Of a stretch of 64,000 bases of DNA, positions 6,041 through 26,068 are shown piece by piece (the first letter of the stretch is position 1; each line of letters starts with the position of its first letter). A program made the translations under genes and the position numbers. This DNA comes from Anaerolineae bacterium (lineage in GTDB: Bacteria; Chloroflexota; Anaerolineae; B4-G1; DUEL01): assembly GCA_025060135.1 (NCBI GenBank), contig JANXCY010000012.1, forward strand, positions 4,224-68,223, read 5' to 3'. The notes below the pieces were generated by a model. It did not search any database and was not told the DNA's origin. It saw only the letters and a program-made list of their open reading frames with translations.

Positions 6041-6067
6041 GCCTCCTTCGGGCCGGGACGACGGGCT

Positions 6068-6093
6068 GCGGCGGGGGTTGCGCCCCCCGCCGC
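6068..6093 (+). terminator. GC-rich hairpin after dgkA (10-bp stem GCGGCGGGGG/CCCCCGCCGC, 6-nt loop) with no U-tract. Putative operon end.
   Basis: A perfect inverted repeat lies 28 nt after the dgkA stop, just before the convergent HDAC gene end at 6230. The missing T-run lowers confidence. Confidence 0.3.
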
Positions 6094-6229: not shown

Positions 6230-7318
6230 TCAGAAGTCCGGTTGCAAAAGGGGATGTTGCTCTTTCAGACGGGCCAGCACCGGCATAATGTCGGGCTCGC
6301 TGGCCGGAAACGGTGGGCCAAAAGGATCAGAAAGTGTCTCCTCGCCCAGCAGGGCGTAGAAAGTGTTCAGCACCCCATGGGCCAGCACATCTAAGTGATA
6401 GCCTCCCTCCAGCGTAAAGACGATGCGTCCTCCGCAGAGTTCCTCCGCCATCGCCACCAGTTCGCGCGCGATGTGTGCGTACCCCCCCAGCGAGAGTTGC
6501 ATCATCGCCAGCGGGTCCTGCCAGTGGGAATCATACCCAGCGGAGACCAGGAGCAGGTCAGGACGAAAGCGGCGAACCAGCGGCCAGACCAATTCTCTGT
6601 ACACTTGCTGGTACCCCTGGTCTCCTACCCCAGCGGGCAGCGGGACGTTAAGAACAGAGCCTTTTCCCGCCCCTACACCCACTTCGCTCCAATGTCCCGT
6701 GCCGGGATAGTAGGGATACTCGTGGGTGGAGAAATAAAAGACAGAGGGATCGCTCTCAAAAACAGCCTGGGTACCATTGCCGTGGTGGACGTCTATGTCG
6801 GCGATAAAGACGCGCTGGATGCCTGGGAGGGTCTGAGCATGGCGGGCCGCCACCGCGACATTGTTGAAAAGACAGAACCCCATGCCCCGCTCGGGAAGGG
6901 CATGATGGCCAGGCGGGCGGACCAGAGCAAAGCCATTGCGGACCTCTCCGTCTATGACCGCTTCCACCAGGGCCAGAAGCCCCCCGGCAGCCATAACAGC
7001 CGCATCATAGGAGCGGGCATTCATGTACGTGTCGGCATCCAAGTGTCCCCCGCCGCGCTCCGCAACCCGCCGCACCTGGGCAATGTAGGCCGGCGTATGA
7101 ATTCGGGCCAGTTCCGCTTCGGTCGCCGGGCGGGCCTCCACAGGGACTAACCGCTCCAGGATTCCGACCTCCCCCAAGACGACCATGATCCGCTCCAGCC
7201 GACGGGCATTCTCCGGATGGCCAGGCTGATTATGCTCTAAATAGATGGGGTGGTACACGTAACCGGTCGCCACGGCACACCTCCCAAGTGGGCGGGCATA
7301 CTCCCAGATGACAGACAA
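6230..7318 (-). CDS. histone deacetylase-family hydrolase (AcuC / acetylpolyamine amidohydrolase-like)
   Basis: Arginase/deacetylase-fold motifs: HHGNGTQ, DIDVHHG and an EGGY..L C-terminal motif. 362 aa. It starts 16 nt after the carB stop on the same strand. Confidence 0.8.
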   Translation of the reverse strand: MSVIWEYARPLGRCAVATGYVYHPIYLEHNQPGHPENARRLERIMVVLGEVGILERLVPVEARPATEAELARIHTPAYIAQVRRVAERGGGHLDADTYMNARSYDAAVMAAGGLLALVEAVIDGEVRNGFALVRPPGHHALPERGMGFCLFNNVAVAARHAQTLPGIQRVFIADIDVHHGNGTQAVFESDPSVFYFSTHEYPYYPGTGHWSEVGVGAGKGSVLNVPLPAGVGDQGYQQVYRELVWPLVRRFRPDLLLVSAGYDSHWQDPLAMMQLSLGGYAHIARELVAMAEELCGGRIVFTLEGGYHLDVLAHGVLNTFYALLGEETLSDPFGPPFPASEPDIMPVLARLKEQHPLLQPDF

Positions 7319-7333
7319 CGGGCAGATCAGGCC

Positions 7334-10300
7334 TTACCGGCGAGGGGCCGGAAGCCGGTACCATTCCTGGAGGCTCCGGACTTCCAGGGGATGCTGCCGG
7401 AGCGAACGGATAGCCTGAACCGCCGCGCTGGCCGCGGAGAGCGTCGTAGTGTAGGCCACCCCACAAGCCACCGCCGCCTTCCGGATGGCGCTCTCATCCG
7501 TATAGGCCCCCCGCCCCAGAGGAGTATTGATCACCAGGTCAATCAGGCCCTGCTCAATGTAATCCACCGCGTGGGGATGCCCCTCATAAACCTTGTTGAC
7601 CACTTCTACCTTCAAACCATGCCGCTGGAGATAAGCGGCCGTCCCACCCGTTGCCAGCAACCGGAAGCCCAACTCGGCCAGCCCCCGCGCGATAGGCACC
7701 AGGTTGGCCTTGTCGTTGTCGTTCACGCTGAGAAAGGCCGTCCCTTCTACCGGCAGCCGGTTCCCAGCCGCCATCTGCGCCTTCGCAAAGGCGAGCCCGA
7801 AATCATCGGCCATGCCCATCACTTCGCCGGTACTCTTCATCTCCGGGCTCAACAGGGCATCCACCTCCCGGAACTTAATGAAGGGAAGCACCACCTCTTT
7901 CACGAAGTACCCTTTGGGAACTGGCTCCCCGGTGAAACCCAGGTCCTCCAGCCGCTGGCCCATTATGACCTTCGTCGCCAGGCGGGCCAGAGGAACACCG
8001 ATGGCCTTGCTCACGTAGGGAACCGTCCGGGAGGCGCGGGGGTTCACTTCCAGGACGTACACGACGCCATCCTTCATCGCCATCTGGACGTTCATCAACC
8101 CGCGCACCTGCAGCGCTTCCGCCAGGCGATAGGTGTATTCCCGAATGGTCTGCAAGTGCTCCGGGGCGACCATGTAAGTGGGAATCACACAGGCCGAATC
8201 GCCGGAGTGAATCCCCGCCAGTTCGATCTGCTCCATAATGGCCCCGATGACGGCCCGCTCCCCATCCGCGATGCAATCCACATCCATCTCAAAGGCATCC
8301 TCCAGGAAGCGATCGATCAGCACCGGGGAGCGCGGGTCGATCTCTATGGCTTCCGCCACACACCGTTCCAGCGTGGCCTGGTCGTAGACAATGGCCATAG
8401 CCCGCCCGCCCAGGACGTAACTGGGCCGCACCAGCACCGGGTAGCCGATCCGGGCCGCGACCAGCCGGGCCTCCTTCACCGTCAGGGCGGTCCCGTGTTC
8501 CGGCTGGGGGATCTCCAGTTCCTTGAGAAGACGGCTGAACCGCTCCCGGTCCTCTGCCAGGTCAATGCTATCGGGGGGAGTCCCCAAAATCCGCACCCCG
8601 GCCCGGTGGAGGGGGAGCGTCAGTTTCAGCGGCGTCTGCCCCCCGAACTGGACAATCGCTCCCAGCAGATTCCCCCTTTGCTGCTCCGTCTCCACGATGT
8701 TGAGAACATCCTCCAACGTGAGCGGCTCAAAGTAGAGGCGGTCCGAGGTGTCGTAGTCGGTACTGACCGTCTCGGGATTGCAGTTGACCATGATGGCCTC
8801 TATGCCCATCTCCCGCAGGGCGAAGGCCGCGTGGCAGCAACAATAGTCAAACTCAATCCCCTGACCGATGCGGTTCGGCCCACTGCCCAGAATGATGACC
8901 TTGGGGCGGTCCGAGGGGTCGGCCTCGCATTCCGTCTCGTAGGTGGAATACAGATACGGAGTGTAGGCCTCAAACTCAGCCCCGCAGGTATCCACCCGCT
9001 TGTAGACCGGGCGAATCCCCAGAGCCAGCCGCCGCTGGCGGACCTGCCGCTCGCTGACGTCCCAGAAACGGGCCAATTGAGCGTCCGCAAAGCCCATCCG
9101 TTTGGCCTCCAGCAACTGTTCAGCGGAGACGGTATCCAGCCGGGTGGCCCGCAGCGCCTGCTCCATCGCCAGGATTTCGGCCATTTGCTGGAGAAACCAG
9201 GGGTCAACGGAGGTCAGAGCCGCCACCTCCTCCACGCTCATCCCCGTCCGGAGCGCGTAGTAGATATACAGCATGCGGTCCGGATTCGGCGTGATCAATC
9301 GCTGCCGCAATAGATGAGGGTTCACCCGTCGTTCATCTGCGACCAGGCCGATCAGGCCGCTTTCCAGGGAACGAAGCCCTTTCTGAAGGGCTTCTTTGAA
9401 GGTGCGTCCGATGGCCATCGCTTCGCCCACCGATTTCATCTGGGTGCCCAGCGTGTCGTCTACGCCCGGGAACTTCTCAAAGGCCCAGCGGGGGATTTTG
9501 ACCACCACGTAATCAATCGTCGGCTCAAAAGAGGCCATAGTCTCCCGGGTGATGTCGTTGGGGATTTCGTCCAGCGTGTATCCGACCGCGAGTTTGGCAG
9601 CGATTTTGGCGATGGGGAAGCCGGTGGCCTTGGAGGCCAGGGCAGAACTGCGGGAGACACGAGGGTTCATCTCAATGACCACCATCTGCCCGTTCCGGGG
9701 GTTGACGGCGAACTGGATGTTGGACCCTCCCGTCTCCACGCCGACCCGGCAGATGATGCGTCGGGCCCAGTCCCGCATCTGCTGGTACTCCTTATCCGTC
9801 AGGGTCTGGGCCGGGGCGACGGTGATGCTATCGCCCGTATGGACGCCCATCGGATCAAAGTTTTCAATGGGGCAGACCACGACGAAGTTGTCTTTGGCGT
9901 CCCGCATCACCTCCAGTTCGTACTCTTTCCAGCCCAGGACCGACTCTTCTATGAGCACCTGGTGCACCGGACTCTGGGAGAGCCCCCAGAGTACGGCGTC
10001 CCGGAACTCCTCCGGGGTCCAGGCGATACCTCCCCCGGTCCCTCCCAGCGTAAAGGAGGGACGAATAATCGCAGGGAGGCCGACTTCCTCCAGGACGCGC
10101 CAGGCTTCCTCCAGACTGGTAACCGTCGCGCTGCGAGGGGTGGGAAGGCCGATGTCGGTCATGGCGGCTTTGAAGAGTTCGCGGTCTTCGGCCACCCGAA
10201 TGGCTTCCGGACTGGCGCCAATCAGACGAACCCCGTATCGTTCCAAGACGCCTTTCTCGGCCAGGGTTACCGCCAGGTTCAGGCCCGTCTGTCCTCCGAC

Positions 10301-10567
10301 AGTGGGCAGAAGGGCATCGGGCCGCTCTTTGGCGATGATGCGCTCCACCACCTCCCATGTCAGCGGTTCAATATAGGTCCGGTCGGCAAACTCCGGGTCG
10401 GTCATAATGGTCGCCGGATTGGAGTTCACCAGGATGACGGTGTACCCTTCCGACCGGAGGGCCTTGCACGCCTGGGTGCCAGAATAGTCAAACTCGCAGG
10501 CTTGCCCGATGACAATCGGCCCGGAGCCGATGACCAGAATCCGGTGAATGTCTGTCCGCTTAGGCAT
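7334..10567 (-). CDS. carB: carbamoyl-phosphate synthase large subunit
   Basis: 1077 aa with two ATP-grasp halves. The N-terminus [38 protein letters not shown] is canonical. An MGS-like C-terminal domain is present. Confidence 0.97.
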
Positions 10568-11687
10568 GGCTCTTCTGCGCGTCCATTAAACGGGTGAATT
10601 CCTCAAAGAGGGCAACGGCATCGTGAGGGCCGGGCGACGCTTCGGGGTGGTACTGGACGCTGAACGCCGGAAGAGAGCGATGCCGTAGACCCTCTACAGT
10701 ACCATCATTGAGGTTGATATGGGTAACTTCCACATCGCCAGGCAGGGAATCGGGGTCCACCGCGAAGCCGTGATTCTGAGAGGTGATCTGGATTTTGCCG
10801 GTCGCCAGGTCTTTGACCGGCTGGTTGGCTCCCCGATGGCCGAACTTCAATTTGAACGTCTTTCCCCCGACGGCCAGACCCAGTAGTTGATGCCCCAGAC
10901 AGATGCCGAAGACCGGAACCCGTCCCAGGAGGTGGGCAACGTTCCGGATGGCATACGGGAGCGCCGCCGGGTCTCCCGGGCCGTTGGAAAGAAGAACACC
11001 GTCCGGATGCAGGGCCAGGACTTCCTCAGCGGGGGTCTCCGCCGGAACCACCAGGGCTCGGCAGCCAGCATCCACCAACAACCGGAGGATGTTCCGTTTG
11101 ACGCCGAAATCGTACACCACGACCCGATACCGGGGTTCATGCGGCGGTATCACGCGCCACTCTGGCGGCACGCCTTCGGTCCAGATATACCGCTCGGCGC
11201 AGGTTACTTCCCGTACCAGGTCCCGGCCCACCAGGCCCGGCGACGCGGCCGCTTTGCGGACCAGGCGCTCCTCATCCAGGTCCACGGTGGAGAGCACACC
11301 CTTCATAGCGCCGGCCAGCCGGATGTGGCGGGTAATCGCCCGGGTGTCCACTCCGGCAATGCCCACAATCCCATGCTCCTGGAGAAATGCTTCCAGGCTC
11401 TTCCGGGCACGCCAGTTGCTATATATGGGACTGAGTTCCCGAACCACGAAACCTTCTACCCACGGTCGCCAGGATTCCACGTCCGTCTCATTGACACCGT
11501 AGTTGCCAATATGGGGGTAGGTCATCACTACGATTTGTCCTTTGTAGGAGGGGTCGGTCAGGATTTCCTGGTAGCCGGTCATGCTGGTGTTAAACACCAC
11601 TTCACCAGCCACTTCGCCCCGGGCGCCAAACGCCCAGCCGTGAAAGACCCGACCGTCCTCCAATGCCAGAATGGCCCGATCGCGCAT
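10560..11687 (-). CDS. carA: carbamoyl-phosphate synthase small (glutaminase) subunit
   Basis: 375 aa. CarA N-domain plus a class-I glutamine amidotransferase with the catalytic Cys context GICLGHQLL. The stop overlaps the carB start by 8 nt. Confidence 0.95.
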
Positions 11688-11734
11688 GGGACCTCCTCAG
11701 CCAATGGATGTTGACGGTTTCGCTGCCATAACCC

Positions 11735-12739
11735 TTAATCCATGCACGCCACGATGGCCCGGGTGAACTCGCGGGTCGTGGCGGTGCCGCCCATGTCCGG
11801 GGTGAGGGCCTTGCCCTGGCGATAAGTTTCCAGGACCGCCTTTTCCACCCGGGCGGCCGCTTCGGTCTCTCCCAGGTAGGCCAGCATCATGGCGCCTGCC
11901 AGGATCAGCGCGGTGGGATTGGCGATGCCCTTCCCAGCGATGTCCGGCGCAGAGCCGTGGACCGCCTCAAAGACGGCGACCCCATCGCCAATATTGGCCG
12001 CCGGAGCCAGACCCAGCCCCCCCACCAGTCCCGCCGCCAGGTCCGAGACGATGTCGCCATAGAGGTTCGGACAGAGGAGCACATCGTGCCGCCCCGGGTC
12101 CAGCACCAGGTCCAGGCACAGGGCATCCACAATGCGCTCGCTATATTTCAAGTGCGGGTATTGGCCCGCCACTTCGCGGGCACACTGGAGAAACAGCCCG
12201 TCGCTCATCTTCAGGATGTTGGCTTTGTGGACGGCGGTTACCTGGCGGCGATGATGGCGGGTCGCGTAATCAAATGCGAACCGGGCAATCCGCTGGCTGG
12301 CCTGGCGGGTGATGCGCTTCACCGCGATCACCGTGTCGTCATCTATCCAGTGCTCCACGCCCGCGTAGAGGTCTTCCGTATTCTCCCGGATGATCACCAG
12401 GTCTACGGCGGGGTAGCGGGCCGGGACCCCGGGAATGCTCCGCACCGGACGCAGATTGGCGTAGAGGTCCAGCCGTTGCCGGAGCGCAACGGTAGCACTG
12501 GCGAAACCGCTCCCGACCGGTGTGGTGATGGGGCCTTTCAGCGCCACCCCGCAGCGGCGAATCTCCTCCACCGCTTCATCCGGTAGAGGGGTGCCGGTCA
12601 TTTCCATCGCGGCGATGCCCACCTCAAAGGGTTTCCATTCAATCTCCACTCCCGTGGCCGCCAGCACTGTCCGGGTGGCGTCCACGATTTCCGGCCCGAT
12701 GCCATCGCCGGGAAGGACGACTACGGTGTATCCGGCCAT
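11735..12739 (-). CDS. beta-decarboxylating dehydrogenase of the isocitrate/3-isopropylmalate/homoisocitrate family
   Basis: 334 aa with the family signature [27 protein letters not shown]. The NLYGDI variant is more typical of HICDH/NAD-IDH than of classical LeuB NLFGDI. It lies downstream of leuCD-type genes. Confidence 0.85.
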
Positions 12740-13236
12740 CGGAACCCTCCGTACCGCAGGACATGGGGAACCAATCCGCCGCTCTCCAGAATGGCCCGCA
12801 TCACCGGGGGGAGGGGACGGAAGGTCCGCTCCAGGTTGCGGGTGAGGTTGCGCACCCGGCCTTCTACCAGGTCCACCTCAATCTCATCTCCGGTCTCAAA
12901 GCCCCCGGTATCGCAAATGATGGGCATCAGACCCACGTTGACCGCATTTCGGAAGAAGATGCGAGCGAAGGAGGAGGCGATGACAGCGGCAATCCCCCGT
13001 TCCTTCAGGACCAGGGCGGCGTGTTCCCGGGAAGAACCCTGTCCGAAATTTTTTCCTGCGACCACGAAGTCGCCCGGCTGAGCGCTACGGGCAAACTCCG
13101 GATCGGCATCCTCCAGGGCATGTTCCGCTAAGGCCTGGAGATTCCCCCGCAGATGGTAATACCGGCCGGGGATGATGTGATCGGTGCTGATGCCGTCGCC
13201 GAATCGCCAGATCTTGCCTCGAAGGATTCTCTCCAT
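12721..13236 (-). CDS. leuD: 3-isopropylmalate/homoaconitate dehydratase small subunit (short archaeal-type LeuD/LysU)
   Basis: 171 aa aconitase swivel domain (GSSREHA, GDNIDTD-like DHIIPGRYY region). Placed 12 nt after leuC. Confidence 0.85.
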   Translation of the reverse strand: MERILRGKIWRFGDGISTDHIIPGRYYHLRGNLQALAEHALEDADPEFARSAQPGDFVVAGKNFGQGSSREHAALVLKERGIAAVIASSFARIFFRNAVNVGLMPIICDTGGFETGDEIEVDLVEGRVRNLTRNLERTFRPLPPVMRAILESGGLVPHVLRYGGFRWPDTP

Positions 13237-13248
13237 AGGTCTGCTCCT

Positions 13249-14496
13249 CTACAGGAATTCTCTCGGATCAGTAATCCGACCCCGGACCGCCGTAGCGGCC
13301 GCCGTGGCGGGCGAGGCCAGGTAAATTTCCGCCTCAGGGTTGCCCATCCGTCCCTGAAAGTTCCGGTTCTGGGTGGAAAGACAGCGCTCTCCATCTGCCA
13401 GGATGCCCTGGTGGACTCCAACACAGGCCCCGCATCCGGGGGGCAGGATGAGCCCACCGGCTTCTATAAAGATTTGGAGCCATCCTTCCTGAAGCGCGGC
13501 CAGATAGACCTCTCGGGACGCCGGGCAGACCAGGAGACGAACGCCGGGGTGGACCTGGCGTCCCCGCAAAATATGGGCGGCCATTCGAAGGTCCGAAAGC
13601 CGCCCATTGGTGCAAGTGCCAATAAAGACCTGGTCTATCGGCACATCTCCCGCTTCCTCCACGGGCCGAACGTTGTCCACAAAATGGGGGAAGGCGACCT
13701 GGGGAGAAAGGGAGGGGGCATGCAGTTCCACCCGGCGTTCGTAGACCGCATCCGGGTCAGGGGCCAGAGGTAGATAATCCTCCGCCCGTCCGCGCTCGGC
13801 CAAGAACTGACGGGTCTGCTCATCGGAAGCGCAGAGGCCTGTTTTGGCTCCTGCTTCTACCGCCATATTGCAGAGAGTCATCCGCTCCTCCACGCTCATG
13901 GCCGCGACGGTGGAGCCGCCGAACTCCAGGGCCTGATAGTTGGCACCGTCTGCGCCCAAGAGCCCAATCACGTGGAGAATCACGTCCTTCGCCATCACCA
14001 TGGGAGGGAGGGGCCCCTCCACTTCCACCCGAATGGTGGGGGGAATCCGCAGCCACGTCTCCCCCAGCGCCATGGCCACGGCAATATCGGTGGAGCCCAT
14101 GCCGGTGGCAAAGGCAGCCAGGGCCCCGGCGGTGCAAGTGTGGGAATCCGCACCCAGGATAATCTGGCCGGGTCGGGCCCACTGCTCGGCCACGATCTGG
14201 TGGCAGATGCCCTCGCCAGGCGGATAGAAGCGGGCTCCGCCTTCCTCGGCAAAGGTACGGAGCCGTTTCTGGACGTTGGCGAGTTCCCGGCGGGGTGCCG
14301 GTGCGGCGTGGTCGGAGAAGAAGAGGGTCTGCGTCGCCGGACGGGTTCTTTCCAGCGCGCTGAACCGGTCCAGAGCCAGGGGACCAGTCCCTTCGTGGGC
14401 CAGCAACAGGTCCACCGGAACCACCACGATGTCCTCTGCCCGGACCGTTTCCCCGAGGCGCCGGGAGATGATTTTCTCGGCTAGTGTAAGTCCCAT
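13249..14496 (-). CDS. leuC: 3-isopropylmalate/homoaconitate dehydratase large subunit (archaeal-type LeuC/LysT)
   Basis: 415 aa aconitase family. Fe-S ligand cysteines are in GTCTNGR and PGCGACVG contexts, and substrate-binding GADSHT is present. Confidence 0.9.
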   Translation of the reverse strand: MGLTLAEKIISRRLGETVRAEDIVVVPVDLLLAHEGTGPLALDRFSALERTRPATQTLFFSDHAAPAPRRELANVQKRLRTFAEEGGARFYPPGEGICHQIVAEQWARPGQIILGADSHTCTAGALAAFATGMGSTDIAVAMALGETWLRIPPTIRVEVEGPLPPMVMAKDVILHVIGLLGADGANYQALEFGGSTVAAMSVEERMTLCNMAVEAGAKTGLCASDEQTRQFLAERGRAEDYLPLAPDPDAVYERRVELHAPSLSPQVAFPHFVDNVRPVEEAGDVPIDQVFIGTCTNGRLSDLRMAAHILRGRQVHPGVRLLVCPASREVYLAALQEGWLQIFIEAGGLILPPGCGACVGVHQGILADGERCLSTQNRNFQGRMGNPEAEIYLASPATAAATAVRGRITDPREFL

Positions 14497-14530
14497 AGGG
14501 CAATCTCCTCCAGGATGAGATAGATGAAAG

Positions 14531-15682
14531 TCAGGTGAGCCGATGGTTGACCAGTTCGTGGTACAGCAGCATCAGTTCTTTATCAAAGAGCGGTCGTTTT
14601 AATTCCACGGCCGCCGCTCGCACCCGCTCCAGCAGGCGGCTGGCGGTGGCGCCATCCAGTTGAATGCCGAATTCGGTGTGGAACTTGTGGATCAGCGCGT
14701 GGGTTCCGGAGTGTTTCCCGATGACGATCTGCCGCTCCAGGTTGACCTCCTCGGGGCTGAACGCCTCGTAGGTGTGGGGGTGCTTGAGGATACCGTCGGC
14801 GTGGATCCCCGACTCGTGGGCGAAGATGGAACTCCCAATGATGGCTTTCCAGATGGGGATAGCCCGGCGGCTGGCTTCGGCGATGTACTCGGCCGCTTCC
14901 CGGAAGCGCGTGGTATCCACACCCAGGTCCACGCCATAGAGGTGTTTCAGCGCCATCACTACTTCCTCCAGCGGGGAGTTGCCGGTCCGCTCCCCCAGGC
15001 CCCCCAGAGAAGCAGCAACCGCCCGCGCGCCGGCCCGGAGGCCCATCAACACGTTGGCGGTCGCCATCCCGAACTCGTTGTGCATGTGCAACTGGATGGG
15101 GATGGAGACGGCCTGGCAAATATGCCGGATGTGCCGATACGTGGTGAAAGGGTCATTGACGCCCAGAGAATCACAATACCGGACCATCCGGGCACCCAGA
15201 GCCTCGGCCCGGCGGTAATACTCGATGAGGAAATTCATATCGGAGCGGGATGCGTCCTCTGCACTGACGATGAAGGAAAGGGACCTCTGTCGGGCCGCTT
15301 CGGCCGCTTCCTCCATGCGCTCCAGCACCCAGGAGCGGGTAGTGCGGAACTTGCGTTCAATGTGGATGTCGGAGGTGGAGATGGAGATCACCACCCCGTG
15401 GACCCCGCACTCCGCCGCGTCCATAATGTCGTCTCGGCGTGCTCGGGCAAAGGCGTAGACTTCCAGGGGTTGCTGGGATTCCCCTACCTGGAGGCCGGCT
15501 TCTACAATCGCCCGAATCGCCTCTTTCTCTTCCGGCCCCAGCGCTGGGAAACCCGCCTCCAGCGCGGGGATTCCCATATGAGCCAGATGGGAAGCGATCT
15601 GGATCTTCTCCCAGCGGGAGAAAATCACCCCCACCGCCTGTTCTCCGTCCCGCAGCGTGATATCCATCAGATGGATGTCCAT
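14531..15682 (-). CDS. short-form 2-oxoacid:acetyl-CoA condensing enzyme (NifV/CimA/LeuA catalytic-domain family, no LeuA regulatory domain)
   Basis: DRE-TIM metallolyase motifs LRDGEQ and HxH (HMHNEFG). Start corrected to the ATG of MDIHLMDITLRDGEQ, with an AGGAGG RBS 6 nt upstream. The ORF-track GTG start at 15700 would place codons over that RBS. Confidence 0.85.
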   Translation of the reverse strand: MDIHLMDITLRDGEQAVGVIFSRWEKIQIASHLAHMGIPALEAGFPALGPEEKEAIRAIVEAGLQVGESQQPLEVYAFARARRDDIMDAAECGVHGVVISISTSDIHIERKFRTTRSWVLERMEEAAEAARQRSLSFIVSAEDASRSDMNFLIEYYRRAEALGARMVRYCDSLGVNDPFTTYRHIRHICQAVSIPIQLHMHNEFGMATANVLMGLRAGARAVAASLGGLGERTGNSPLEEVVMALKHLYGVDLGVDTTRFREAAEYIAEASRRAIPIWKAIIGSSIFAHESGIHADGILKHPHTYEAFSPEEVNLERQIVIGKHSGTHALIHKFHTEFGIQLDGATASRLLERVRAAAVELKRPLFDKELMLLYHELVNHRLT

Positions 15683-15715
15683 GAGAATCCTCCTGGGCAC
15701 ATTGAACCCAAAGGG

Positions 15716-16894
15716 TTATTGCCTGGCCAGCATGCGATACTCTTCCACCACCTCCCGATCAAACAGCGACCGTTTCAGAGCAATGGCGCGGGACCGCAGG
15801 ATCGGTACCAGTCGTTGCAATTCCTCCTGGGTAGGATGGTAGCCATACTCCCGGAGTTTCTGGGCCACGACCGAGGGCCCGGAATATTTTCCCACGTTGA
15901 ACCGGCGGGAGAGTCCAACCTCTCCTGGGAGAAAGATTTCGTAGGTCGCCGGATCGCGTACCACACCGCTGGCCCGGCCTTCCGATTCGTAGATAAAGAG
16001 GTTGCTACCGACCACCGGCTTGGAAGGTGGAAGGGGCCTCCCGGAGGCCAGCGCGACATATTCCGAAAGTTCCCGCAGCAGGGAGGTCCGGAGCCCCAGG
16101 TTCACGCCTTCGCAGTACCGGAGGGCCATCACCAGTTCCTCCAGCGAAGCATTTCCAGCCCGTTCCCCCAGCCCGTTCACAGTCGTGTTCACGTAGGTGG
16201 CGCCGGCCTTCAGGCCCGCCAGTGCATTAGCCACTGCCATTCCGAAGTCGTTGTGAGTATGCATCTCAATCGGGATGCTGGCTTCGTCAACCAGAAATTT
16301 CACCCGCTTGTACGTCTCAAAGGGGTCCAGAACCCCCACCGTGTCGCAGTACCGGAGCCGGTCGGCTCCCGCTTCTCGGGCCGTACGGGCGAACTCCACC
16401 AGGAACTCCGGGTCGGCCCGGGAGGCATCCTCCGCGTTCACAGAGACGTAGAGGTTGTGGCTCTTGGCGAACTCCGTGGCCCGTTTCACCGCGTCCAGCA
16501 CCTGCTGTCGGGTGGAGCGCAATTTGTGCTGGATGTGGATGTCAGAGGCGGAGATGGAAAGAGCCACTGCATCTACTCCGCAGTCCAGGGAGTGGCGGAT
16601 GTCATCCACGACAGCCCGATTCCAGGCCAGGATACTGGTGGGAAGTTCCAGCCGGACGATGGCTTTGATGGCTTCTTTTTCATCTCCGCCCATGGCGGGA
16701 ATGCCCACCTCAATCTGGTGAACCCCCAGCAGGGCCAGCAGCCGGGCGATATGGACCTTCTCTTCGTTGGCGAAAACCACTCCGGCCGTCTGTTCCCCAT
16801 CCCGCAACGTAGTATCATCTATGTAGACCGGGTGCTGGATGGGAGAATGGAGCATTTCTTCTGGAGAATGTTCGTCTAATGGAAACGGGATCAT
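15716..16894 (-). CDS. second short-form 2-oxoacid:acetyl-CoA condensing enzyme (NifV/CimA/LeuA-like paralog)
   Basis: LRDGEQ and HTHNDFGMAVAN motifs. Start corrected to the ATG of MIPFPLDEH, with an AGGAGG RBS 6 nt upstream. It is a paralog of the adjacent gene. Confidence 0.85.
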   Translation of the reverse strand: MIPFPLDEHSPEEMLHSPIQHPVYIDDTTLRDGEQTAGVVFANEEKVHIARLLALLGVHQIEVGIPAMGGDEKEAIKAIVRLELPTSILAWNRAVVDDIRHSLDCGVDAVALSISASDIHIQHKLRSTRQQVLDAVKRATEFAKSHNLYVSVNAEDASRADPEFLVEFARTAREAGADRLRYCDTVGVLDPFETYKRVKFLVDEASIPIEMHTHNDFGMAVANALAGLKAGATYVNTTVNGLGERAGNASLEELVMALRYCEGVNLGLRTSLLRELSEYVALASGRPLPPSKPVVGSNLFIYESEGRASGVVRDPATYEIFLPGEVGLSRRFNVGKYSGPSVVAQKLREYGYHPTQEELQRLVPILRSRAIALKRSLFDREVVEEYRMLARQ

Positions 16895-16965
16895 CGTTGG
16901 CCTCCTGATGATAACCCTGCCCGGGCCGTATGGGCGGATCACGTCAGGCACCCGGTTGGGTCCGT

Positions 16966-18426
16966 TTAACCGAGAAAGCGTCGGAGAATGGCCGCGCGGG
17001 TGATCAGGTCGGTCAGTTGCATCACGTGATTCTGTTCCAGCGAACGGCGAATCCGGCGCACCAGTTCCAGATGCTCGGGGTGGGGCGAGAAAGAGAAACC
17101 GGCCTGTTCCAGCGCGGTGCGCAGGGACCGGGTCATAAAGGGCCCTTCCAGGTCGGTGAAGCCCAGCGCGGCGCGGATTTCTGCCCGGAAAGAAGGGTAG
17201 ACTTCGTCCAGAAAGGCCAAGTCGTCCGCGGTTAGAGCGTCAAAGGCGATCAGTTCCGGGGGCAGGCCCAGCGAGTACAGGGCACAGACAAAGGAAATGG
17301 CGCGCGGCAGCGTGATGCCGTTCATCTCGCGGGCGTAGCCAAACAGTCCGACATGCAATTTCCGCGTCCGACGAGGCGGCACGTATTGGGCCACATGATT
17401 AATATACGGAGCCAGTTCCGCGATTTGCTGCCGATAGGCCAGGCTATACCGCTCAATAATCGCCAGGGCGCGCTCGGTATCCACAGGCATGGCCTGGCCG
17501 ATTTCCCGGGTCCGGAGGTACTCACAGGCAGCCCGGACCTCCGGGACAGGATAATCATACTTAAAGGCGGACTGGATGGTAAAGGTAACCACACTCGGAT
17601 ATTCCTTCCCGACCCGTTCCACCGTGGGCGGCGACAAGCCCCCCCGGAATGGTGCCGCGCCCAGTCCGATGATCGGGTAGAAGCGTACACCGATGGATGC
17701 GGACAACTCGTCCAACCGGGCCAGCGCGATCTTATTCGCCAGTGCCGCTGCCACCAGTCCGTAGTTCATAGCGGTATCTGAGCGGGCCAGGAAGACCCGT
17801 TGTTCGCGGATCGGTTTATCGGCCAGATATTCTCTCATAATGTCGGCGGATCGCAGCAACGTGGGCACATCTTCAAATAGAGGGATCACCCCGATAGACG
17901 GGGGGGAGAATTCCCCAATCCATTCGGCAATGGTAATATCATCGTCCCGAAGACGAAGGTGCTGCCGTCCCACAATGTGGTTCATGTAGTAACGATACAC
18001 CCGGTCAATGCACCGGGCCGAGACCGTCATCGGGAGAATGACTTCAAAGATAGGGGCGACTCGGTCCTTGTAGAACAGTGAAGCCACATCGTAGGAACGA
18101 GGGATACTCTCCAGGGTCTCCAGGAGAATCTTGGCTTCCGCTTTCTCGACCAGCGGGTTCGGGACTCGCAGCGTGAGGCGTACATCCTGGCCCAGTACGT
18201 GGTCCTGAAAATACTCCGGATAGAACGAGAGGAGTTTCTTGACCACATATACATCAATTTCCTTGCCCTCCACATCCCACATCTGTTCATCGCATCCCAG
18301 ATGGGAGTAAGCATAGTACGCCTCGCGGACCTCGTCCTCTCCGGCCAGCACACTGGCGGTGGCAAAGAATGGTACCGTCGCGTTGTCAGGATGCTGAGTG
18401 CTCATACAGCGTGGGATAATGGACAT
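16966..18426 (-). CDS. archaeal-type phosphoenolpyruvate carboxylase (PepcA family)
   Basis: Start corrected to MSIIPRCMSTQHPDN, the hallmark N-terminus of archaeal-type PEPC, with a GAGGAG RBS 8 nt upstream. About 487 aa is typical for this family, against more than 880 aa for bacterial Ppc. Confidence 0.75.
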   Translation of the reverse strand: MSIIPRCMSTQHPDNATVPFFATASVLAGEDEVREAYYAYSHLGCDEQMWDVEGKEIDVYVVKKLLSFYPEYFQDHVLGQDVRLTLRVPNPLVEKAEAKILLETLESIPRSYDVASLFYKDRVAPIFEVILPMTVSARCIDRVYRYYMNHIVGRQHLRLRDDDITIAEWIGEFSPPSIGVIPLFEDVPTLLRSADIMREYLADKPIREQRVFLARSDTAMNYGLVAAALANKIALARLDELSASIGVRFYPIIGLGAAPFRGGLSPPTVERVGKEYPSVVTFTIQSAFKYDYPVPEVRAACEYLRTREIGQAMPVDTERALAIIERYSLAYRQQIAELAPYINHVAQYVPPRRTRKLHVGLFGYAREMNGITLPRAISFVCALYSLGLPPELIAFDALTADDLAFLDEVYPSFRAEIRAALGFTDLEGPFMTRSLRTALEQAGFSFSPHPEHLELVRRIRRSLEQNHVMQLTDLITRAAILRRFLG

Positions 18427-18481
18427 ATCCAGGCTCCTCTCTAACGGCTTTCGGTGGCATCCTGGCTCCCGGTGCACCGGA

Positions 18482-19378
18482 TTAACGGTGGGCGCCGGTG
18501 TGATTCATATTGGAGAGCCCTGGACTCTCCAGTGGAGAGAGGGGGCGGGGGCGTCCAGCACCCACCATCTCTCCCAGCAGTTTGGATTTCTGATAGGCAG
18601 CCCAGACGGCTTTGGAGATGACCGTACGCAGCCCCCCTTTCTCCAGTTGGTAGATGGCCTCGGCGCTAGTGCCGCCCGGGGAGGTTACCATGTTGCGCAG
18701 TTCGGCCAGATGTTTGCCGGACTCGCGCGCGAAGAGTGCCGCTCCGATCACCGTCTGGGTTACCAGTTCCTGGGCAATACGGCGGGAGAAGCCCAGATGA
18801 ACCGCCGCATCTACCAGCGCTTCCATCACCAGGAAGACATACGTGGGGCCGGTCCCGCTAACGGCCGTGGCCATATCAATACTGTCTTCATCATGGACGG
18901 ATAACTCTTTGCCCAGCGCGCTCAACAGCCATCGGGTCTGTTCCTGTTGCGCTTCGGTTACCGCTGGCGTGGCGGTCCAAACGCTCATGCCCTCCCCGAT
19001 TTGGGCCGGGGTGTTCGGCATCACCCGGACGATGGCTTCGTGGTTCAATGCCCGCGCGATGTACTCAATGCGGGCCCCCGCCACGATGGAGAGAACCAGT
19101 TGCTCGGGTCGGATCGTCCCCGCCAGTTCCACCAGCACCAATGGCAGGACCTGGGGCTTGACGGACAGCACCACAATGTCGGCGGCCCGGGCAGCCTCCC
19201 GGTTATCCGTGGTCCAGCGGATGCCATACCGCTGGTGGAGTTCCTCTCCCCGTTCGGGACGAGGACCACTGGCAATGATGCGCTCCGGGGTGATTAGGTG
19301 ACGGTGGAGCAACCCCCGGATCATCGCTTCGGCCATCGTCCCACTCCCAATGAAGGCTAAAGTGGTATCGTGAAGCAT
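18482..19378 (-). CDS. proC: pyrroline-5-carboxylate reductase
   Basis: Rossmann motif AFIGSGTMAEAM and the ProC C-terminal dimerisation domain (SPGGTS, AI..LE). Start set at the ATG of MLHDTTLAFIGSG, in frame with the track ORF. Confidence 0.85.
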   Translation of the reverse strand: MLHDTTLAFIGSGTMAEAMIRGLLHRHLITPERIIASGPRPERGEELHQRYGIRWTTDNREAARAADIVVLSVKPQVLPLVLVELAGTIRPEQLVLSIVAGARIEYIARALNHEAIVRVMPNTPAQIGEGMSVWTATPAVTEAQQEQTRWLLSALGKELSVHDEDSIDMATAVSGTGPTYVFLVMEALVDAAVHLGFSRRIAQELVTQTVIGAALFARESGKHLAELRNMVTSPGGTSAEAIYQLEKGGLRTVISKAVWAAYQKSKLLGEMVGAGRPRPLSPLESPGLSNMNHTGAHR

Positions 19379-19425
19379 TCGATGCCTCCCGGCTGGCTGG
19401 ATGGGCACTCAGATGCTACCGGTTA

Positions 19426-20658
19426 CTAATGGTCATGGGACCTGGCCGCGTGCGGGACCCGGGTCTCCAGGCTTTCATATCGTTTGGCTTTCATCCGTTC
19501 AGGATGAAAGCCATCTCCCCACTCCCGAAGGAGGGTATCCACGTCATCCAGTGTCAGCGGCTTCTCATCGGCCAGGGCCTTAATGTGAGCGGTAACTTCC
19601 CGAATCTGCTCTGGGGTTAGATGCAGGCCCAGTTGTTCCGCGCGCCATTTGACGGCATTCCAGCCGGTGAACCGATGGGCGATAGAGATATACCGGGAAA
19701 GCCCGAATTCGGTCGGATCAATGATTTCATAGGTGCTGGGCTCGTTGAGAATGGCCTTAGCGTGAATACCGGCTTTATGGGTAAAAGCCGTGATCCCTGT
19801 AATGTAGTTATTGAAAGGGATGTCCACACCCACGAATTGGGCCACCATCTCGTCCAGTTTCTTTAACATTTTCAGGTTATACTTGCGCACCAGGTTGGGG
19901 TCCAGTGCATACAGCCGGGCGATCAGTCCGCCCAGGGGGGTAATACCGTTCCGCTCCCCGATGCCCAGCACACTGGTGTCCACGTATTGAGCGCCGGCCA
20001 GGAGCGCTGCGTAACTGTTGGCGATGGCACATCCCGAATCATTGTGGCCGTGGAATTCCACGGCGGCGCGCACCCGCTGTTTGAGGGCGCGCACCAGGTC
20101 GTAGACCTCAAACGGTGTAGCGACCCCCACCGTATCGGCGATGCCCACCCGATGGATATCCATTTTGTCCACTTCGGAATACACCTGAAACAGGTCTGCG
20201 CGGGCGCTCCGGAACGAGTCCTCGGTGCTGAAGCGCACTTCCAGTTCGGGCCGCTGCTCCTTAATGAAAGCGATCACTTCTATCGCCTTCTCAATGATCT
20301 GGGGAATGTCCCAGCCGTGGGAGAACCGGCGCAACGGCAGGCCGATTCCGATGACAATGTCAATGCCGTGAAGGCCCTCAATCTCCATCGCGCGGGCGGC
20401 ATCTTCCCGATTACAGCGAATATGGGTGAGAATCCGAGCCCGCAACCCCAGGCTGGCAATCATCTGGAGGTCCCGGTAACTCCGGGGGGAGACGACCGGT
20501 GAGGTCAGTTCCAGATACTCCACGCCGAACTCGTCCAGGGCACAGGCAATGTCAATCTTCTGGCCCGTGGTGAAACTGGCTCCCACAAATTGCTCTCCTT
20601 CTCGCAGGGTGGATTCTATGATATAGAATTCGCGAATCGCCGGTCGCTCTTCCTCCAT
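19426..20658 (-). CDS. homocitrate synthase-like enzyme, Lys20/Thermus-HCS type (2-oxoglutarate:acetyl-CoA condensing enzyme family)
   Basis: Start corrected to [24 protein letters not shown], with a GGAGGTG RBS 7 nt upstream. It aligns closely by eye to Thermus/fungal homocitrate synthases ([25 protein letters not shown]). The 79-codon ORF-track extension actually covers the promoter and terminator hairpin. Confidence 0.85.
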
Positions 20659-20683
20659 CGTGCACCTCCATTTGGGGAAAGGT

Positions 20684-20724
20684 ATAGGTATACAAAAAGG
20701 CCGACTCTCGTGCTCTAGAGAGTC
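20684..20724 (-). terminator. intrinsic-terminator hairpin (attenuator) in the 5' leader, 26 nt upstream of the homocitrate synthase start. It is bidirectional.
   Basis: Perfect 11-bp stem GGCCGACTCTC/GAGAGTCGGCC with an 8-nt loop. It is flanked by AAAAA on the plus strand (= UUUUU on the minus-sense RNA) and TTTT on the other side. Confidence 0.6.
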
Positions 20725-20885
20725 GGCCTTTTGGGAATAATCAGATGCAACCATATTTACCCTGCGGCGCGCAAACTCCCCAGAGCCCTGGCCCAGGGAC
20801 CCTGCTTCGGTCGCGGCTTCTGAGGGGTGCGCAGGTTGTACGCCAACATCTCGACTGCTGACTGGCGCCAATGGAGTTTGGCGCT

Positions 20886-20914
20886 TATATACCACACTTC
20901 TTGGAATTTGTCAA
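20886..20914 (-). promoter_or_regulatory. near-consensus sigma70 promoter TTGACA-17-TATATA for the homocitrate-synthase leader
   Basis: On the minus strand: TTGACAaattccaagaagtgtggTATATA. This gives a roughly 220-nt leader containing the terminator hairpin. Confidence 0.55.
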
Positions 20915-21188
20915 GGGGCATACGCTGGCCACCCTGGGGAAGGAAAGAAGGCAAGAGAGGCGTCTCGGATTCGGCTGTGGATGCAGGCTCGACAGCACCT
21001 GCAGCCTCGGCTGACGCAGGATCGGCGCTCCAGAAGGCCGGGAGGAGCAGTGGGACAGGACAAATAACACCAGTAAACAGGCGAGAGGATGAGTGATTAA
21101 AAAACGGTATCGGACGATGCAACATGGGGTTCATCGCCCGTCCAGATCGGAAAAAACGAAACGCTCTTCAGCCCTCATTATCTATAAT

Positions 21189-21602
21189 CTATGCGACGAG
21201 ATGTTTCTGGTCATACTGCTGGATGCCCCAGATGGCTGTCCGCCGGAGCCACTGATAGGCACTGAGAACCTGCTGAGGCAACAGACCCCCGTCGTAAGGG
21301 AGAGAATAATCCAGGACAATGCCCTCAGGGAACGCCCAGGCCCGCAGGAAGACCACATTCTGGTTCAGCGCGTTAGTGAACTCCAACTGATCCTGAAAGA
21401 GGGTGCCGCTGCGCCAGCCGAAGAGAAGAAAATAGGTCAGCAGCTGTTTGTCCTCTTCTACAGAAATAAAGATTTTGATTCCCCCTTCGGTTACACAGAC
21501 CTTATCATCGGGTGTCAACGTGGCGGTGATATACGCATCGTCAAAAATCGCTTTGATAGTTTGAGGAGACACCTCTTCCGGAGATAATACACGCTCGTTC
21601 AT
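21189..21602 (-). CDS. YbjN-like protein (putative T3SS-chaperone-like / sensory-transduction-regulator fold)
   Basis: Start corrected to MNERVLSPEE, with a GGAAGGAG RBS 5 nt upstream. 137 aa. The similarity to the YbjN family is by motif pattern only (alternating hydrophobic beta-strand signature) and is weak. Confidence 0.45.
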   Translation of the reverse strand: MNERVLSPEEVSPQTIKAIFDDAYITATLTPDDKVCVTEGGIKIFISVEEDKQLLTYFLLFGWRSGTLFQDQLEFTNALNQNVVFLRAWAFPEGIVLDYSLPYDGGLLPQQVLSAYQWLRRTAIWGIQQYDQKHLVA

Positions 21603-25455: not shown

Positions 25456-25475
25456 CACCCGGCTCAGGAGCCTGG

Positions 25476-25520
25476 ATAGGTCTTGACCTATCAGTATAAC
25501 GCAGATGGGAGATTTGTCAA
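25476..25520 (-). promoter_or_regulatory. relA promoter TTGACA-16-TATACT. A 7-2-7 inverted repeat ATAGGTCttGACCTAT lies immediately downstream of the -10 and is a candidate operator.
   Basis: On the minus strand: TTGACAaatctcccatctgcgtTATACTgATAGGTCaaGACCTAT. The palindrome spans 25476-25491. Confidence 0.4.
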
Positions 25521-25539
25521 AGAAAGCCATGCCACAGGC

Positions 25540-25577: not shown

Positions 25578-25606
25578 TACACCATTTGCCAGAAAGGAGC
25601 ATCCGC

Positions 25607-26068
25607 ATGTTGTCTACTGGTCCCATCTTTGATACTATGGTACGCTTTTTTCAAGAGGACAACTGGTACTTTGAACAGTTGCCCGGGAAGCCCATCCTCC
25701 GACTGGGCTTCCGAGGGGAGAACGGTACCTGGTACTGCTACGCACAGGCGCGCGAACCGCAACACCAGTTCGTCTTCTATTCCATTCTGGATGTGAACGT
25801 TCCTCCCAACCGCCGTCAGGCGATGGCCGAATTCCTCACCCGCGCGAACTACGGCCTGGTCATCGGGAACTTTGAGATGGACTTCAACGACGGCGAGGTC
25901 CGGTACAAGACCAGTATTGACGTGGAGGGGGATCGCCTAACCCCGGCGCTGATCAAGCAGATGGTCTACATCAACGTGTTGATGATGGACCGCTACCTGC
26001 CGGGGATCATGAAGGTGGCCTTTGGCAACGTGGATCCGGCTCGGGCAATTGCTGAAATTGAGGGGTAA
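25607..26068 (+). CDS. YbjN-family protein (putative bacterial sensory transduction regulator / chaperone-like)
   Basis: Start corrected to MLSTGPIFDTM, with an AGGAG RBS 7 nt upstream. 153 aa with the typical YbjN pattern (NWYF..L, RGENGTWYCYAQA..., VRYKTSIDVEG). Confidence 0.7.
   Translation: MLSTGPIFDTMVRFFQEDNWYFEQLPGKPILRLGFRGENGTWYCYAQAREPQHQFVFYSILDVNVPPNRRQAMAEFLTRANYGLVIGNFEMDFNDGEVRYKTSIDVEGDRLTPALIKQMVYINVLMMDRYLPGIMKVAFGNVDPARAIAEIEG

Follow-up and report, generated by a model that had tools for sequence, protein, structure and literature searches.

Eleven genes follow one another on the minus strand of a 64-kb stretch of DNA from an Anaerolineae bacterium of the phylum Chloroflexota (contig JANXCY010000012.1; the whole stretch is here called the window, and all positions refer to it), running from position 20658 down to 6230. 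Their products include a homocitrate synthase, two paralogous short synthases, a two-subunit hydro-lyase, a dehydrogenase and a phosphoenolpyruvate (PEP) carboxylase, and together they could form an operon that leads from PEP and acetyl-CoA to 2-oxoglutarate, with outlets to lysine, proline and arginine, under the control of a trp-type attenuator. An earlier note, made from the sequence alone, had described a compact, co-directional string of genes, and this is confirmed by the list of open reading frames (ORFs) and by profile searches: all eleven ORFs are in place with the domains then proposed, and the intergenic gaps, in gene order, measure 17, 4, 71, 15, 34, 12, -19, 47, -8 and 60 nt, spanning -19 to 71 nt. 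These values include adjusted starts for NifV_a and for the last gene, both of which were reset to the codon that follows a Shine-Dalgarno sequence.

Gene content and layout

The first gene (19426-20658), which is preceded by a GGAGG Shine-Dalgarno sequence, encodes a 410-residue putative homocitrate synthase of the Thermus/fungal type, HCS1. It is followed by proC (18482-19408), encoding pyrroline-5-carboxylate reductase (TIGR00112 score 263, cut-off 196.75), and by a gene for an archaeal-type PEP carboxylase (16966-18477), which scores 579 with TIGR02751 (cut-off 146) and matches PF14010 over its full length. The two short synthases, NifV_a (15716-16894, starting at ATG 16894 after AGGAGG) and NifV_b (14531-15700, assigned by identity and motifs), precede the genes for a LeuC/HacA-type large subunit (13249-14496) and a LeuD/HacB-type small subunit (12721-13236) of a hydro-lyase of the two-subunit aconitase/homoaconitase family, and that for a beta-decarboxylating dehydrogenase apparently of the isocitrate dehydrogenase (IDH) type (11735-12739). 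The small and large subunits of carbamoyl-phosphate synthase are encoded by carA (10560-11687; TIGR01368 score 527, cut-off 307) and carB (7334-10567; NF003671 score 1688, cut-off 599). The last co-directional gene (6230-7273) encodes a class II-like deacetylase of the HDAC fold, with a PF00850 match at E 3e-97 and PDB matches to HDAC6 and HDAH; its start is GTG 7273, after GGGAGG.

From this arrangement we infer that the eleven genes are co-transcribed as one unit. The genes that flank them are unrelated housekeeping genes, and in the non-coding DNA of the minus strand from 21300 to 5900 only two sites carry a hairpin followed by a U-run: one near 21104, which belongs to the preceding YbjN-like gene, and the attenuator of the operon itself. 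Promoter-like matches within the operon are weak (9/12). The suggestion that the only strong promoter and attenuator lie upstream of the first gene holds as far as the operon is concerned, with no strong internal promoter and a single attenuator, but has to be corrected for its surroundings, in that the YbjN-like gene (21189-21602, minus strand) has a perfect promoter of its own, TTGACA-16-TATAAT, at 21746-21719. No canonical terminator was found at the end of the gene string; a GC-rich hairpin, GCGGCGGGGG-CGCAA-CCCCCGCCGC, lies at about 6067-6092, some 140 nt past the stop codon of the deacetylase gene, and has no U-run. The LeuC-type coding sequence contains a terminator-like element (13571-13615, minus strand), made up of a stable hairpin of -23.8 kcal/mol and then AUAUUUUG, which is probably masked by translation.

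The three synthases

HCS1 is a predicted homocitrate synthase of the Lys20/Thermus type, as had been proposed at the outset. It scores 440 bits with TIGR02146 (cut-off 413.55), matches the homocitrate synthases of S. pombe (3IVS, E 9e-140) and T. thermophilus (2ZTJ, E 1e-136) in the PDB, and keeps in alignment both the 2-oxoglutarate ligands and the catalytic motif THKAGIH. In the S. pombe enzyme, we take His103, Arg163 and Ser165 to be the ligands of the distal carboxylate of 2-oxoglutarate, and Glu167 and His321' to be catalytic.

The two short synthases, which are 46% identical to each other, resemble a different group of enzymes. Reference Re-citrate synthases and controls were those of Table S1 of PMC12016533, which includes HM1_2993 of Heliomicrobium, identified as a Re-citrate synthase via gene deletion (PMC12016533). 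Identity to HM1_2993, to Teth514_0415 of Thermoanaerobacter and to AksA of C. difficile is 57-60% for NifV_a and 52-54% for NifV_b; elsewhere, the identities are 38-44% to Heliomicrobium NifV, 35-39% to LeuA and 30% to HCS1. A neighbour-joining tree groups both proteins with the HM1_2993/Teth514_0415 clade. The pocket of NifV_a, AWNRA and YVSVNAEDA, is that of the clade, (A/G)WNRA and YVS(V/I)NAEDA, while that of NifV_b is altered to YAFARA and SFIVSAEDA. All models for isopropylmalate synthase (IPMS) and for CimA score far below their cut-offs for both proteins, whose Pfam domains are HMGL-like and HCS_D2 only, with no LeuA_dimer domain, and the pocket residues W/N/S/N (or F/A/T/S) stand where IPMS has Leu, Glu and Ser. 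PDB matches are undiagnostic, with Sulfolobus homocitrate synthase first and IPMS next, and neither the window nor any related locus examined contains a nif gene.

The earlier note had taken the short synthases for enzymes of isopropylmalate and citramalate synthesis. The identities, the clade pocket, the IPMS and CimA scores and the lack of a LeuA_dimer domain leave that leucine/isoleucine assignment unsupported, and NifV_a and NifV_b fall in the Re-citrate synthase clade and most likely have Re-citrate synthase activity. In NCBI records, orthologues of NifV_a are named "homocitrate synthase", and four orthologues of NifV_b (P0121, P0136, P0148 and P0209) are named "homoaconitate hydratase" though they are HMGL-like synthases. 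A literature search found no paper that mentions Teth514_0415.

A candidate split enzyme

[quoted passage not shown] NifV_a and NifV_b have undergone losses that complement each other. In NifV_a, YESEGR replaces the trans-acting HESGIH motif, with Arg in place of His, whereas NifV_b has an intact AHESGIHADG; the HxSGIH feature is lacking in NifV_a alone, and is supplied in the pair by NifV_b. The second His of HxSGIH is presumably part of the catalytic dyad, as His309 in S. cerevisiae, His321 in S. pombe and His379 in M. tuberculosis. The same division runs through the orthologues: (V/I)YE(S/A)E(G/D)R is found in 119 of 120 NifV_a orthologues, the (A/G)WN pocket being kept in 115 of the 120, and AHESG(I/V)H in 119 of 120 NifV_b orthologues, yet with the pockets F-A and xFT(V/I)S. 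In no locus does one of the two genes occur without the other beside it. Single-copy relatives retain both the pocket and the His motif, and, of the 139 full-length representatives closest to NifV_a among 1.84 billion library proteins, 128 keep the His.

Losses that complement each other and are kept under selection suggest an a:b heterodimer in which a single composite site is canonical, and we consider it most likely that NifV_a and NifV_b form such a heterodimer. NifV_a would provide the oxaloacetate-binding barrel, and NifV_b would provide in trans the catalytic His that NifV_a has lost. A fuller scheme, in which duplication and complementary degeneration gave rise to an obligate heterodimer whose second site could turn regulatory or homocitrate-forming, and in which the leader of the operon reads amino acids of the glutamate family, is offered tentatively, as a possibility that we hold to be somewhat less than even; the leader would then report proline, glutamine and arginine, plus lysine where a homocitrate synthase is present. 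In this scheme NifV_a would have acquired YESEGR as a new, conserved loop and NifV_b a roomier, remodelled barrel; one composite site would make citrate, and the second would consist of the NifV_b barrel and the NifV_a loop.

A literature search found no paper on a heteromeric Re-citrate synthase, and in the searches made neither a split synthase nor a Pro/Gln/Arg leader was found described for this enzyme family or phylum. The complementary losses provide a clean and cheap biochemical test of whether an enzyme is heteromeric in a family of which only homodimers are known. In a separate observation, six cluster representatives of the family (P0362, P0367, P0392, P0399, P0472 and P0507) have no trans-acting His, with, for example, DHESEIP, ESGIS or ESGGV at the motif; partner subunits that have degenerated in this way may have evolved repeatedly.

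The isomerase and the dehydrogenase

The large subunit of the hydro-lyase scores 573 with NF001614 (cut-off 385) and 569 with TIGR01343 (cut-off 386), and the small subunit 189 with TIGR02087 (cut-off 109), which places the pair in the archaeal-type two-subunit HacAB/LeuCD subfamily, a level of assignment that leaves the substrate undefined. The loop of the small subunit, which we take to read YLVY in the isopropylmalate (IPM) isomerase and YLRT in the homoaconitase of M. jannaschii, is in the window RYYHLRG (GRYYHLRG with the preceding Gly), and matches neither. A close variant of it, GR(L/Y/F)(F/Y/A)(H/N)LR(T/S/G/N/D)(N/D)L, recurs in LeuD orthologues that lie beside Re-citrate synthases. 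In the PDB, the small subunit is closest to the IPM/citramalate isomerase of M. jannaschii (152 bits), the homoaconitase of that species scoring 127.

For the dehydrogenase, NAD-dependent IDHs are the top PDB matches (384 bits), followed by the homoisocitrate dehydrogenase (HICDH) of Thermus (321) and by isopropylmalate dehydrogenase (IPMDH, 216). In IDH, an S-x-N loop binds the gamma-carboxylate of the substrate, through Ser113 and Asn115 in the E. coli enzyme, and orthologues of the window dehydrogenase carry this E. coli IDH-type loop as GFRSVNV. Within the pair-bearing lineage, the otherwise invariant GFRSVNV is replaced by GF(S/A/P)S(V/A/I)(T/N)V, and LeuD has HLRG(N/D)L in its loop, against HLR(T/S)NL elsewhere. 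These changes may be co-ordinated shifts of specificity in the two enzymes, and, as a speculation, would be compatible with a range widened to homocitrate-derived substrates.

Orthologues of the LeuC-LeuD-dehydrogenase set in other phyla, at 50-62% identity, adjoin synthases of two kinds: those of Dehalococcoidia, Elusimicrobia and Gastranaerophilales share 59-71% identity with the biochemically characterised Re-citrate synthase of D. mccartyi CBDB1, and those of Actinomycetota, of Thermoleophilia and of another Anaerolineae locus share 64-67% with HM1_2993. Two distinct clades of Re-citrate synthase thus recur next to the same module. In D. mccartyi, an IDH encoded in an operon of putative tricarboxylic acid (TCA) cycle genes has measured IDH activity (PMC4720418). 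LeuC-LeuD-dehydrogenase runs occur in two Dehalococcoidia loci (L021 and L055).

The proposal that a single LeuCD-type isomerase and a single dehydrogenase serve the whole string is confirmed as to their number, and their sharing by more than one synthase is plausible. The branches that they serve are most likely not those of leucine and isoleucine, as first suggested, but those of citrate, leading to 2-oxoglutarate, and of homocitrate, given that the module accompanies Re-citrate synthases in other phyla.

Related loci

Related loci were sought in a genome collection with LeuC as the query, and the nearest are in Anaerolineae metagenome-assembled genomes; a metagenome scan with HCS1 gave a single locus, already in the set. 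Among relatives with at least 90% NifV_a identity, proC/PEP carboxylase and NifV_a-NifV_b-LeuC-LeuD-dehydrogenase are constant, and HCS1, carAB and the deacetylase gene are variable. The L086 group has the order leader-HCS1-PEP carboxylase-proC-pair-LeuCD-dehydrogenase, L091 has PEP carboxylase-proC-pair-LeuCD-dehydrogenase, L089 has leader-proC-pair-LeuCD-dehydrogenase-carAB, and L101 has leader-proC-PEP carboxylase-pair on a contig that ends past NifV_b. A palindromic repeat of about 95 nt (..CACACGGATGAACACGGGTTGGACGGATGGACACGG..CCGTGAAAACCCGTGCCATCCGTGTC..), in one to three tandem copies, is found in these close relatives in the gap between NifV_b and LeuC and downstream of the dehydrogenase gene (L086:6850-7200 and 10040-10180; L089:4830-4960; L091:12380-12680); the window has none, and its NifV_b-LeuC gap is 34 nt.

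At 70-80% identity, the module lies within carrier-protein clusters: lysX-lysY-lysZ-pair-LeuCD-dehydrogenase in L002, lysY-lysX-lysZ-HCS1-pair-LeuCD-dehydrogenase in L003, and argG-argH-lysW-lysX-lysY-lysZ-pair-...-aminotransferase-carA-carB-M20 in L082. A link to the LysW-type pathway, which had been suspected from the window, is therefore seen in relatives, where the module is embedded in lysW/X/Y/Z(/J/K) clusters with argGH and carAB, but not in the 64-kb window itself, which contains neither lysW/X/Y/Z/J/K nor dapA/B. LysW systems serve not only lysine but also the synthesis of ornithine and arginine from glutamate (PMC12998189), and the neighbourhood therefore fits a supply of 2-oxoglutarate and glutamate as well as a role in lysine synthesis, the latter being the principal alternative considered below.

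The deacetylase gene, although co-directional and last in the string, is not a conserved member of the unit that it had been thought to close: it follows carB only in the window, and its orthologues (88% and 76% identity) lie in unrelated neighbourhoods. It is probably a recent, lineage-specific passenger. The M20 peptidase gene after carB in L082 raised the possibility that the deacetylase substitutes for LysK/ArgE, an idea that was rejected because its orthologues lie in those unrelated contexts.

The leader region

Upstream of HCS1, a near-consensus sigma-70-type promoter is found at 20886-20914 on the minus strand (TTGACA 20914-20909, a 17-nt spacer and TATATA 20891-20886), and the promoter block CTTGACAAATTC..TGTGGTATATAA is kept ahead of the operon in four related lineages. 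It opens a leader of about 220 nt that passes through a 15-bp hairpin with a U-run (20732-20692) to GGAGG and the ATG at 20658. The leader contains a 30-codon ORF (20757-20849) and four segments that can pair in alternative ways. Segment 1, GCGCACCCCUCAGAA (20818-20832), lies beneath the leader codons R-T-P-Q-K and pairs with segment 2, GGGCUCUGGGGAGUUUGCGCGC (20767-20788), in the RNAalifold consensus; the consensus and the helix energies allow segment 2 to pair with either segment 1 or segment 3. Segments 3 and 4 form an intrinsic terminator, AAAAGGCCGACUCUC-UAGAGCAC-GAGAGUCGGCC-UUUUUGU (20692-20732), that is nearly invariant in relatives.

The comparison covered four sequence variants, one from each of four lineages, plus the distinct leader of L082. 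Across the four, helix 1:2, in which GCGCACCCCUCAGA pairs with UCUGGGGAG..GCGC, is long and has an energy of -28 to -34 kcal/mol. Helix 2:3, of 12-13 bp, is formed by GCUCUGGGGAGU with ACUCUC(Y)AGAGC, at -19 to -24 kcal/mol as a duplex and -28 to -33 kcal/mol as a hairpin, and the terminator helix 3:4 has -22 to -26 kcal/mol; the three energies are comparable in every variant. ACUCUC(Y)AGAGC consists of the 3' part of the 5' arm of the terminator together with the terminator loop, and is complementary to segment 2. Pairing in helix 2:3 is kept in 96.6% of cells, against 32-58% when the partner is slid by one to three columns, and there is no easy other explanation for a conserved terminator loop that is complementary to segment 2. 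The anatomy of a trp-type attenuator, in which a promoter and a short ORF precede a U-tailed terminator and three helices exclude one another, is found in all four lineages.

The leader ORF has 30-32 codons, and the positions of its ATG and stop are fixed across the four lineages in spite of a switch between TAA and TGA and of two indels, both of 3 nt. The codons over and just past segment 1 read P-Q-(K/N)-P-R-P-(K/E), with the Arg codon always CGA; CGA is present in every leader, and makes up 9% of the Arg codons in 26 genes of the window. Lys codons follow in the leaders of the two operons that bear HCS1; of the leaders without HCS1, that of L101 has none and the other has two. Promoter, leader ORF and terminator are the same whether HCS1 or proC comes first. 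A leader of unrelated sequence but the same logic is found in L082 (3815-4060), ahead of argG-argH-lysW and following genes: after a CTTGACA promoter, its ORF, MMATAHLQARRPNEELAYLSG, has tandem CGA-CGA Arg codons, and its antiterminator, GUCUGGG/CCCAGAC, overlaps the terminator arm and loop; the 5' arm and the loop of this terminator pair with the end of the ORF.

We infer that the leader is a trp-type attenuator responding to arginine and perhaps also to proline, glutamine and lysine, its ORF being presumably translated. A ribosome stalled at Pro-Gln-x-Pro-Arg(CGA)-Pro would mask segment 1; segment 2 would then capture the terminator's 5' arm and loop, and transcription would read through. 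Without a stall, helix 1:2 and the terminator would form. Attenuation by lysine codons, as in Thermus, was considered and rejected, because the leader of L101 has no Lys codon and because the same leader heads operons that have no HCS1. The leader frame is open further upstream, through the promoter to ATG 21134 (ORF 20757-21134, minus strand, 125 aa); this longer ORF was taken to be a chance occurrence, and not a gene, because its upstream part is not kept in relatives.

Proposed function and alternatives

The simplest reading of an IDH-type module that recurs beside Re-citrate synthases, with PEP carboxylase as a constant neighbour, is a route from PEP through oxaloacetate, citrate and isocitrate to 2-oxoglutarate. 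The archaeal-type PEP carboxylase would convert PEP to oxaloacetate, the NifV_a/NifV_b pair would condense oxaloacetate with acetyl-CoA to citrate as a Re-citrate synthase, the LeuCD-type enzyme would act as aconitase in turning citrate into isocitrate, and the dehydrogenase would yield 2-oxoglutarate as an IDH. HCS1 would open alpha-aminoadipate lysine synthesis, LeuCD and the dehydrogenase probably also taking homocitrate to 2-oxoadipate, while proC would serve proline, and carAB arginine and pyrimidines. Gene content, spacing, families, motifs, synteny and the alternative RNA helices are observed directly, and the specificity of each enzyme is deduced from them. For this reading as a whole, namely an operon from PEP and acetyl-CoA to 2-oxoglutarate with a split Re-citrate synthase, outlets to lysine, proline and arginine, and a trp-type attenuator, we estimate a probability of roughly 60%.

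A number of observations weigh against it. On the enzyme side, the dehydrogenase falls below the IDH cut-off (PRK08997, 430 against 510), and its loop in the window is GFASATV, with S-A-T for S-x-N and the preceding Arg lost. NifV_a passes the TIGR02660 cut-off for NifV (481 against 463), NifV_b staying below it at 433; the neighbour-joining tree has no support values, and the assignment of HM1_2993 rests on a phenotype and not on an enzyme assay (PMC12016533). The place of the module within LysW clusters in L002, L003 and L082 would fit homocitrate, homoaconitase and homoisocitrate chemistry equally well. On the leader side, the independent variants are only four, and helix 2:3 shows no compensatory double changes among them, an absence of covariation that is put down to sequences too similar to reveal it. 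The ORF has a weak Shine-Dalgarno sequence, and the candidate regulatory codons are scattered in the window leader and in tandem only in L082. Minimum free energy folds with segment 1 masked retain the terminator, the antiterminator appearing only in truncated, co-transcriptional folds, and a switch, if it operates, must therefore be kinetic.

The alternative that survives best assigns the whole module to alpha-aminoadipate lysine synthesis, with the pair as a second homocitrate synthase, LeuCD as homoaconitase, the dehydrogenase as homoisocitrate dehydrogenase, and 2-oxoglutarate coming from elsewhere. It draws on the lys gene orders of L002, L003 (where HCS1 is added) and L082, on the score of NifV_a above the cut-off for NifV homocitrate synthases, on the roomier pocket of NifV_b (W to F, N to A and N to S), on the loss of Arg and Asn from the dehydrogenase loop and the Gly in place of Thr/Ser in the LeuD loop of the pair lineage, and on the Thermus HICDH score, which is little below that of the IDHs (321 against 384 bits). 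We nevertheless regard it as unlikely. A dedicated Thermus-type homocitrate synthase is already present in the window, in L003 and in the L086 group; the pocket of NifV_a is identical to that of the Re-citrate clade, with N where the single aligned NifV, from Heliomicrobium, has G; a PEP carboxylase that would supply oxaloacetate is a constant neighbour; orthologous LeuCD-dehydrogenase sets lie beside bona fide Re-citrate synthases in phyla where LysW genes are not part of the neighbourhood; and the LysW clusters themselves can serve ornithine and arginine synthesis from glutamate (PMC12998189). An intermediate case, a module that acts on citrate as well as on homocitrate, merges into the 2-oxoglutarate reading that we prefer.

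For the leader, the alternative is a riboswitch, or an attenuator that binds a protein or tRNA, in which the ORF would be a by-product of conserved RNA structure. Such a structure could account for a fold that is stabler than its shuffled versions (z = -3.6) and for the two small hairpins enclosed by helix 1:2, one of which varies in sequence yet keeps its pairing, and would also suit an ORF with no good Shine-Dalgarno sequence and no tandem regulatory codons. Searches of Rfam, however, gave no match in the whole window at gathering thresholds and none in the leader at E up to 10, and a by-product ORF would hardly be expected to keep its start, frame and stop through two 3-nt indels and a TAA/TGA switch. 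The complementarity of the loop to segment 2 is a requirement of a translation-coupled three-helix switch, and the L082 leader repeats the same logic in a different sequence, with tandem Arg codons before arginine genes. A non-peptide attenuator is on this evidence improbable, and the trp-type attenuator is preferred.

Finally, the model of the earlier note, in which homocitrate, isopropylmalate and citramalate synthases share a promiscuous isomerase and dehydrogenase for lysine, leucine and isoleucine, can be given very little credence: the short synthases are of the same family (HMGL-like plus HCS_D2), the LeuCD and dehydrogenase families include IPM enzymes, and the best PDB match of LeuD is an IPM/citramalate isomerase (152 against 127 bits), but the short synthases score far under the IPMS and CimA cut-offs, have no LeuA_dimer domain, have polar or aromatic pockets and cluster with Re-citrate synthases, the dehydrogenase reaches 216 bits to IPMDH against 384 to IDH, the LeuD loop is YYHLRG and not the YLVY of IPM isomerase, and no ilv or leu genes lie near the module in any relative. 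Leucine/isoleucine chain elongation is, in short, not supported as the function of the operon.

Other features of the window

Two features of the window lie outside the operon. A RelA/SpoT gene (23299-25530, minus strand) stands between two YbjN-like genes, the one mentioned above and another at 25586-26068 on the plus strand. A 1061-aa ORF on the plus strand (39747-42932) looks like a fusion of serine hydroxymethyltransferase (residues 88-431; NF000586 score 429, cut-off 335) with the aminomethyltransferase GcvT (residues 648-1016; TIGR00528 266 bits, cut-off 236).

Comparison with known systems

The closest parallel is the oxidative branch of the split TCA cycle in anaerobes, as represented by HM1_2993 of Heliomicrobium, Teth514_0415 of Thermoanaerobacter, AksA of C. 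difficile, and the Re-citrate synthase of D. mccartyi CBDB1 with its IDH (DmIDH). These systems likewise employ a synthase of the homocitrate synthase/IPMS superfamily that is usually annotated as "homocitrate synthase"; the 52-60% identity to the HM1_2993 clade, the link to an IDH-type dehydrogenase and the anabolic supply of 2-oxoglutarate are further points of likeness. The window differs in that its synthase takes the form of two adjacent paralogues with complementary losses, in that its aconitase candidate is of the two-subunit LeuCD/HacAB type, and in that the unit adds PEP carboxylase, a homocitrate synthase, proC and carAB.

The alpha-aminoadipate lysine cluster of Thermus thermophilus (hcs, hacAB, lysW/X/Y/Z/J/K) lies under a leader peptide with lysine codons. 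The window resembles it in the homology of HCS1 (E 1e-136), in the two-subunit hydro-lyase, in a leader ORF with a terminator upstream and, through its relatives, in a module placed inside lysWXYZ clusters. Unlike the Thermus cluster, the window has no LysW genes, its leader conserves Pro, Gln and Arg codons and not Lys codons, and this type of leader also heads operons without HCS1. The bifunctional LysW/AmCP systems of Thermococcus kodakarensis and Sulfolobus, which serve lysine as well as ornithine and arginine, share with L082 the intermixing of lysine-type and arginine genes, but the loci described here are bacterial (Chloroflexota), and the carrier-protein genes are absent from the window.

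As in the classical attenuators of Proteobacteria (trp, his, leu, thr and ilv), a promoter, a short ORF, helices 1:2, 2:3 and 3:4 and a U-tailed terminator precede the first structural gene. The differences lie in the codons, which are those of Pro, Gln and a rare Arg codon, in an antiterminator that uses the terminator loop, in a weak ribosome-binding site and in the phylum, Chloroflexota. We know of no leader-peptide attenuator for proline or arginine that has been described, and the leader is a candidate for amino-acid-sensing attenuation beyond the classical phyla and amino acids. The parts of the pathway are all of known kinds, and no known principle is overturned; a likely misannotation, under which public records name these synthases "homocitrate synthase" and in some cases "homoaconitate hydratase", can be corrected. 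Set against these systems, the split synthase and the Pro/Gln/Arg leader peptide would be new variants, by which an abundant uncultured lineage of Chloroflexota may make 2-oxoglutarate and couple it to the synthesis of lysine, proline and arginine in one regulated unit.

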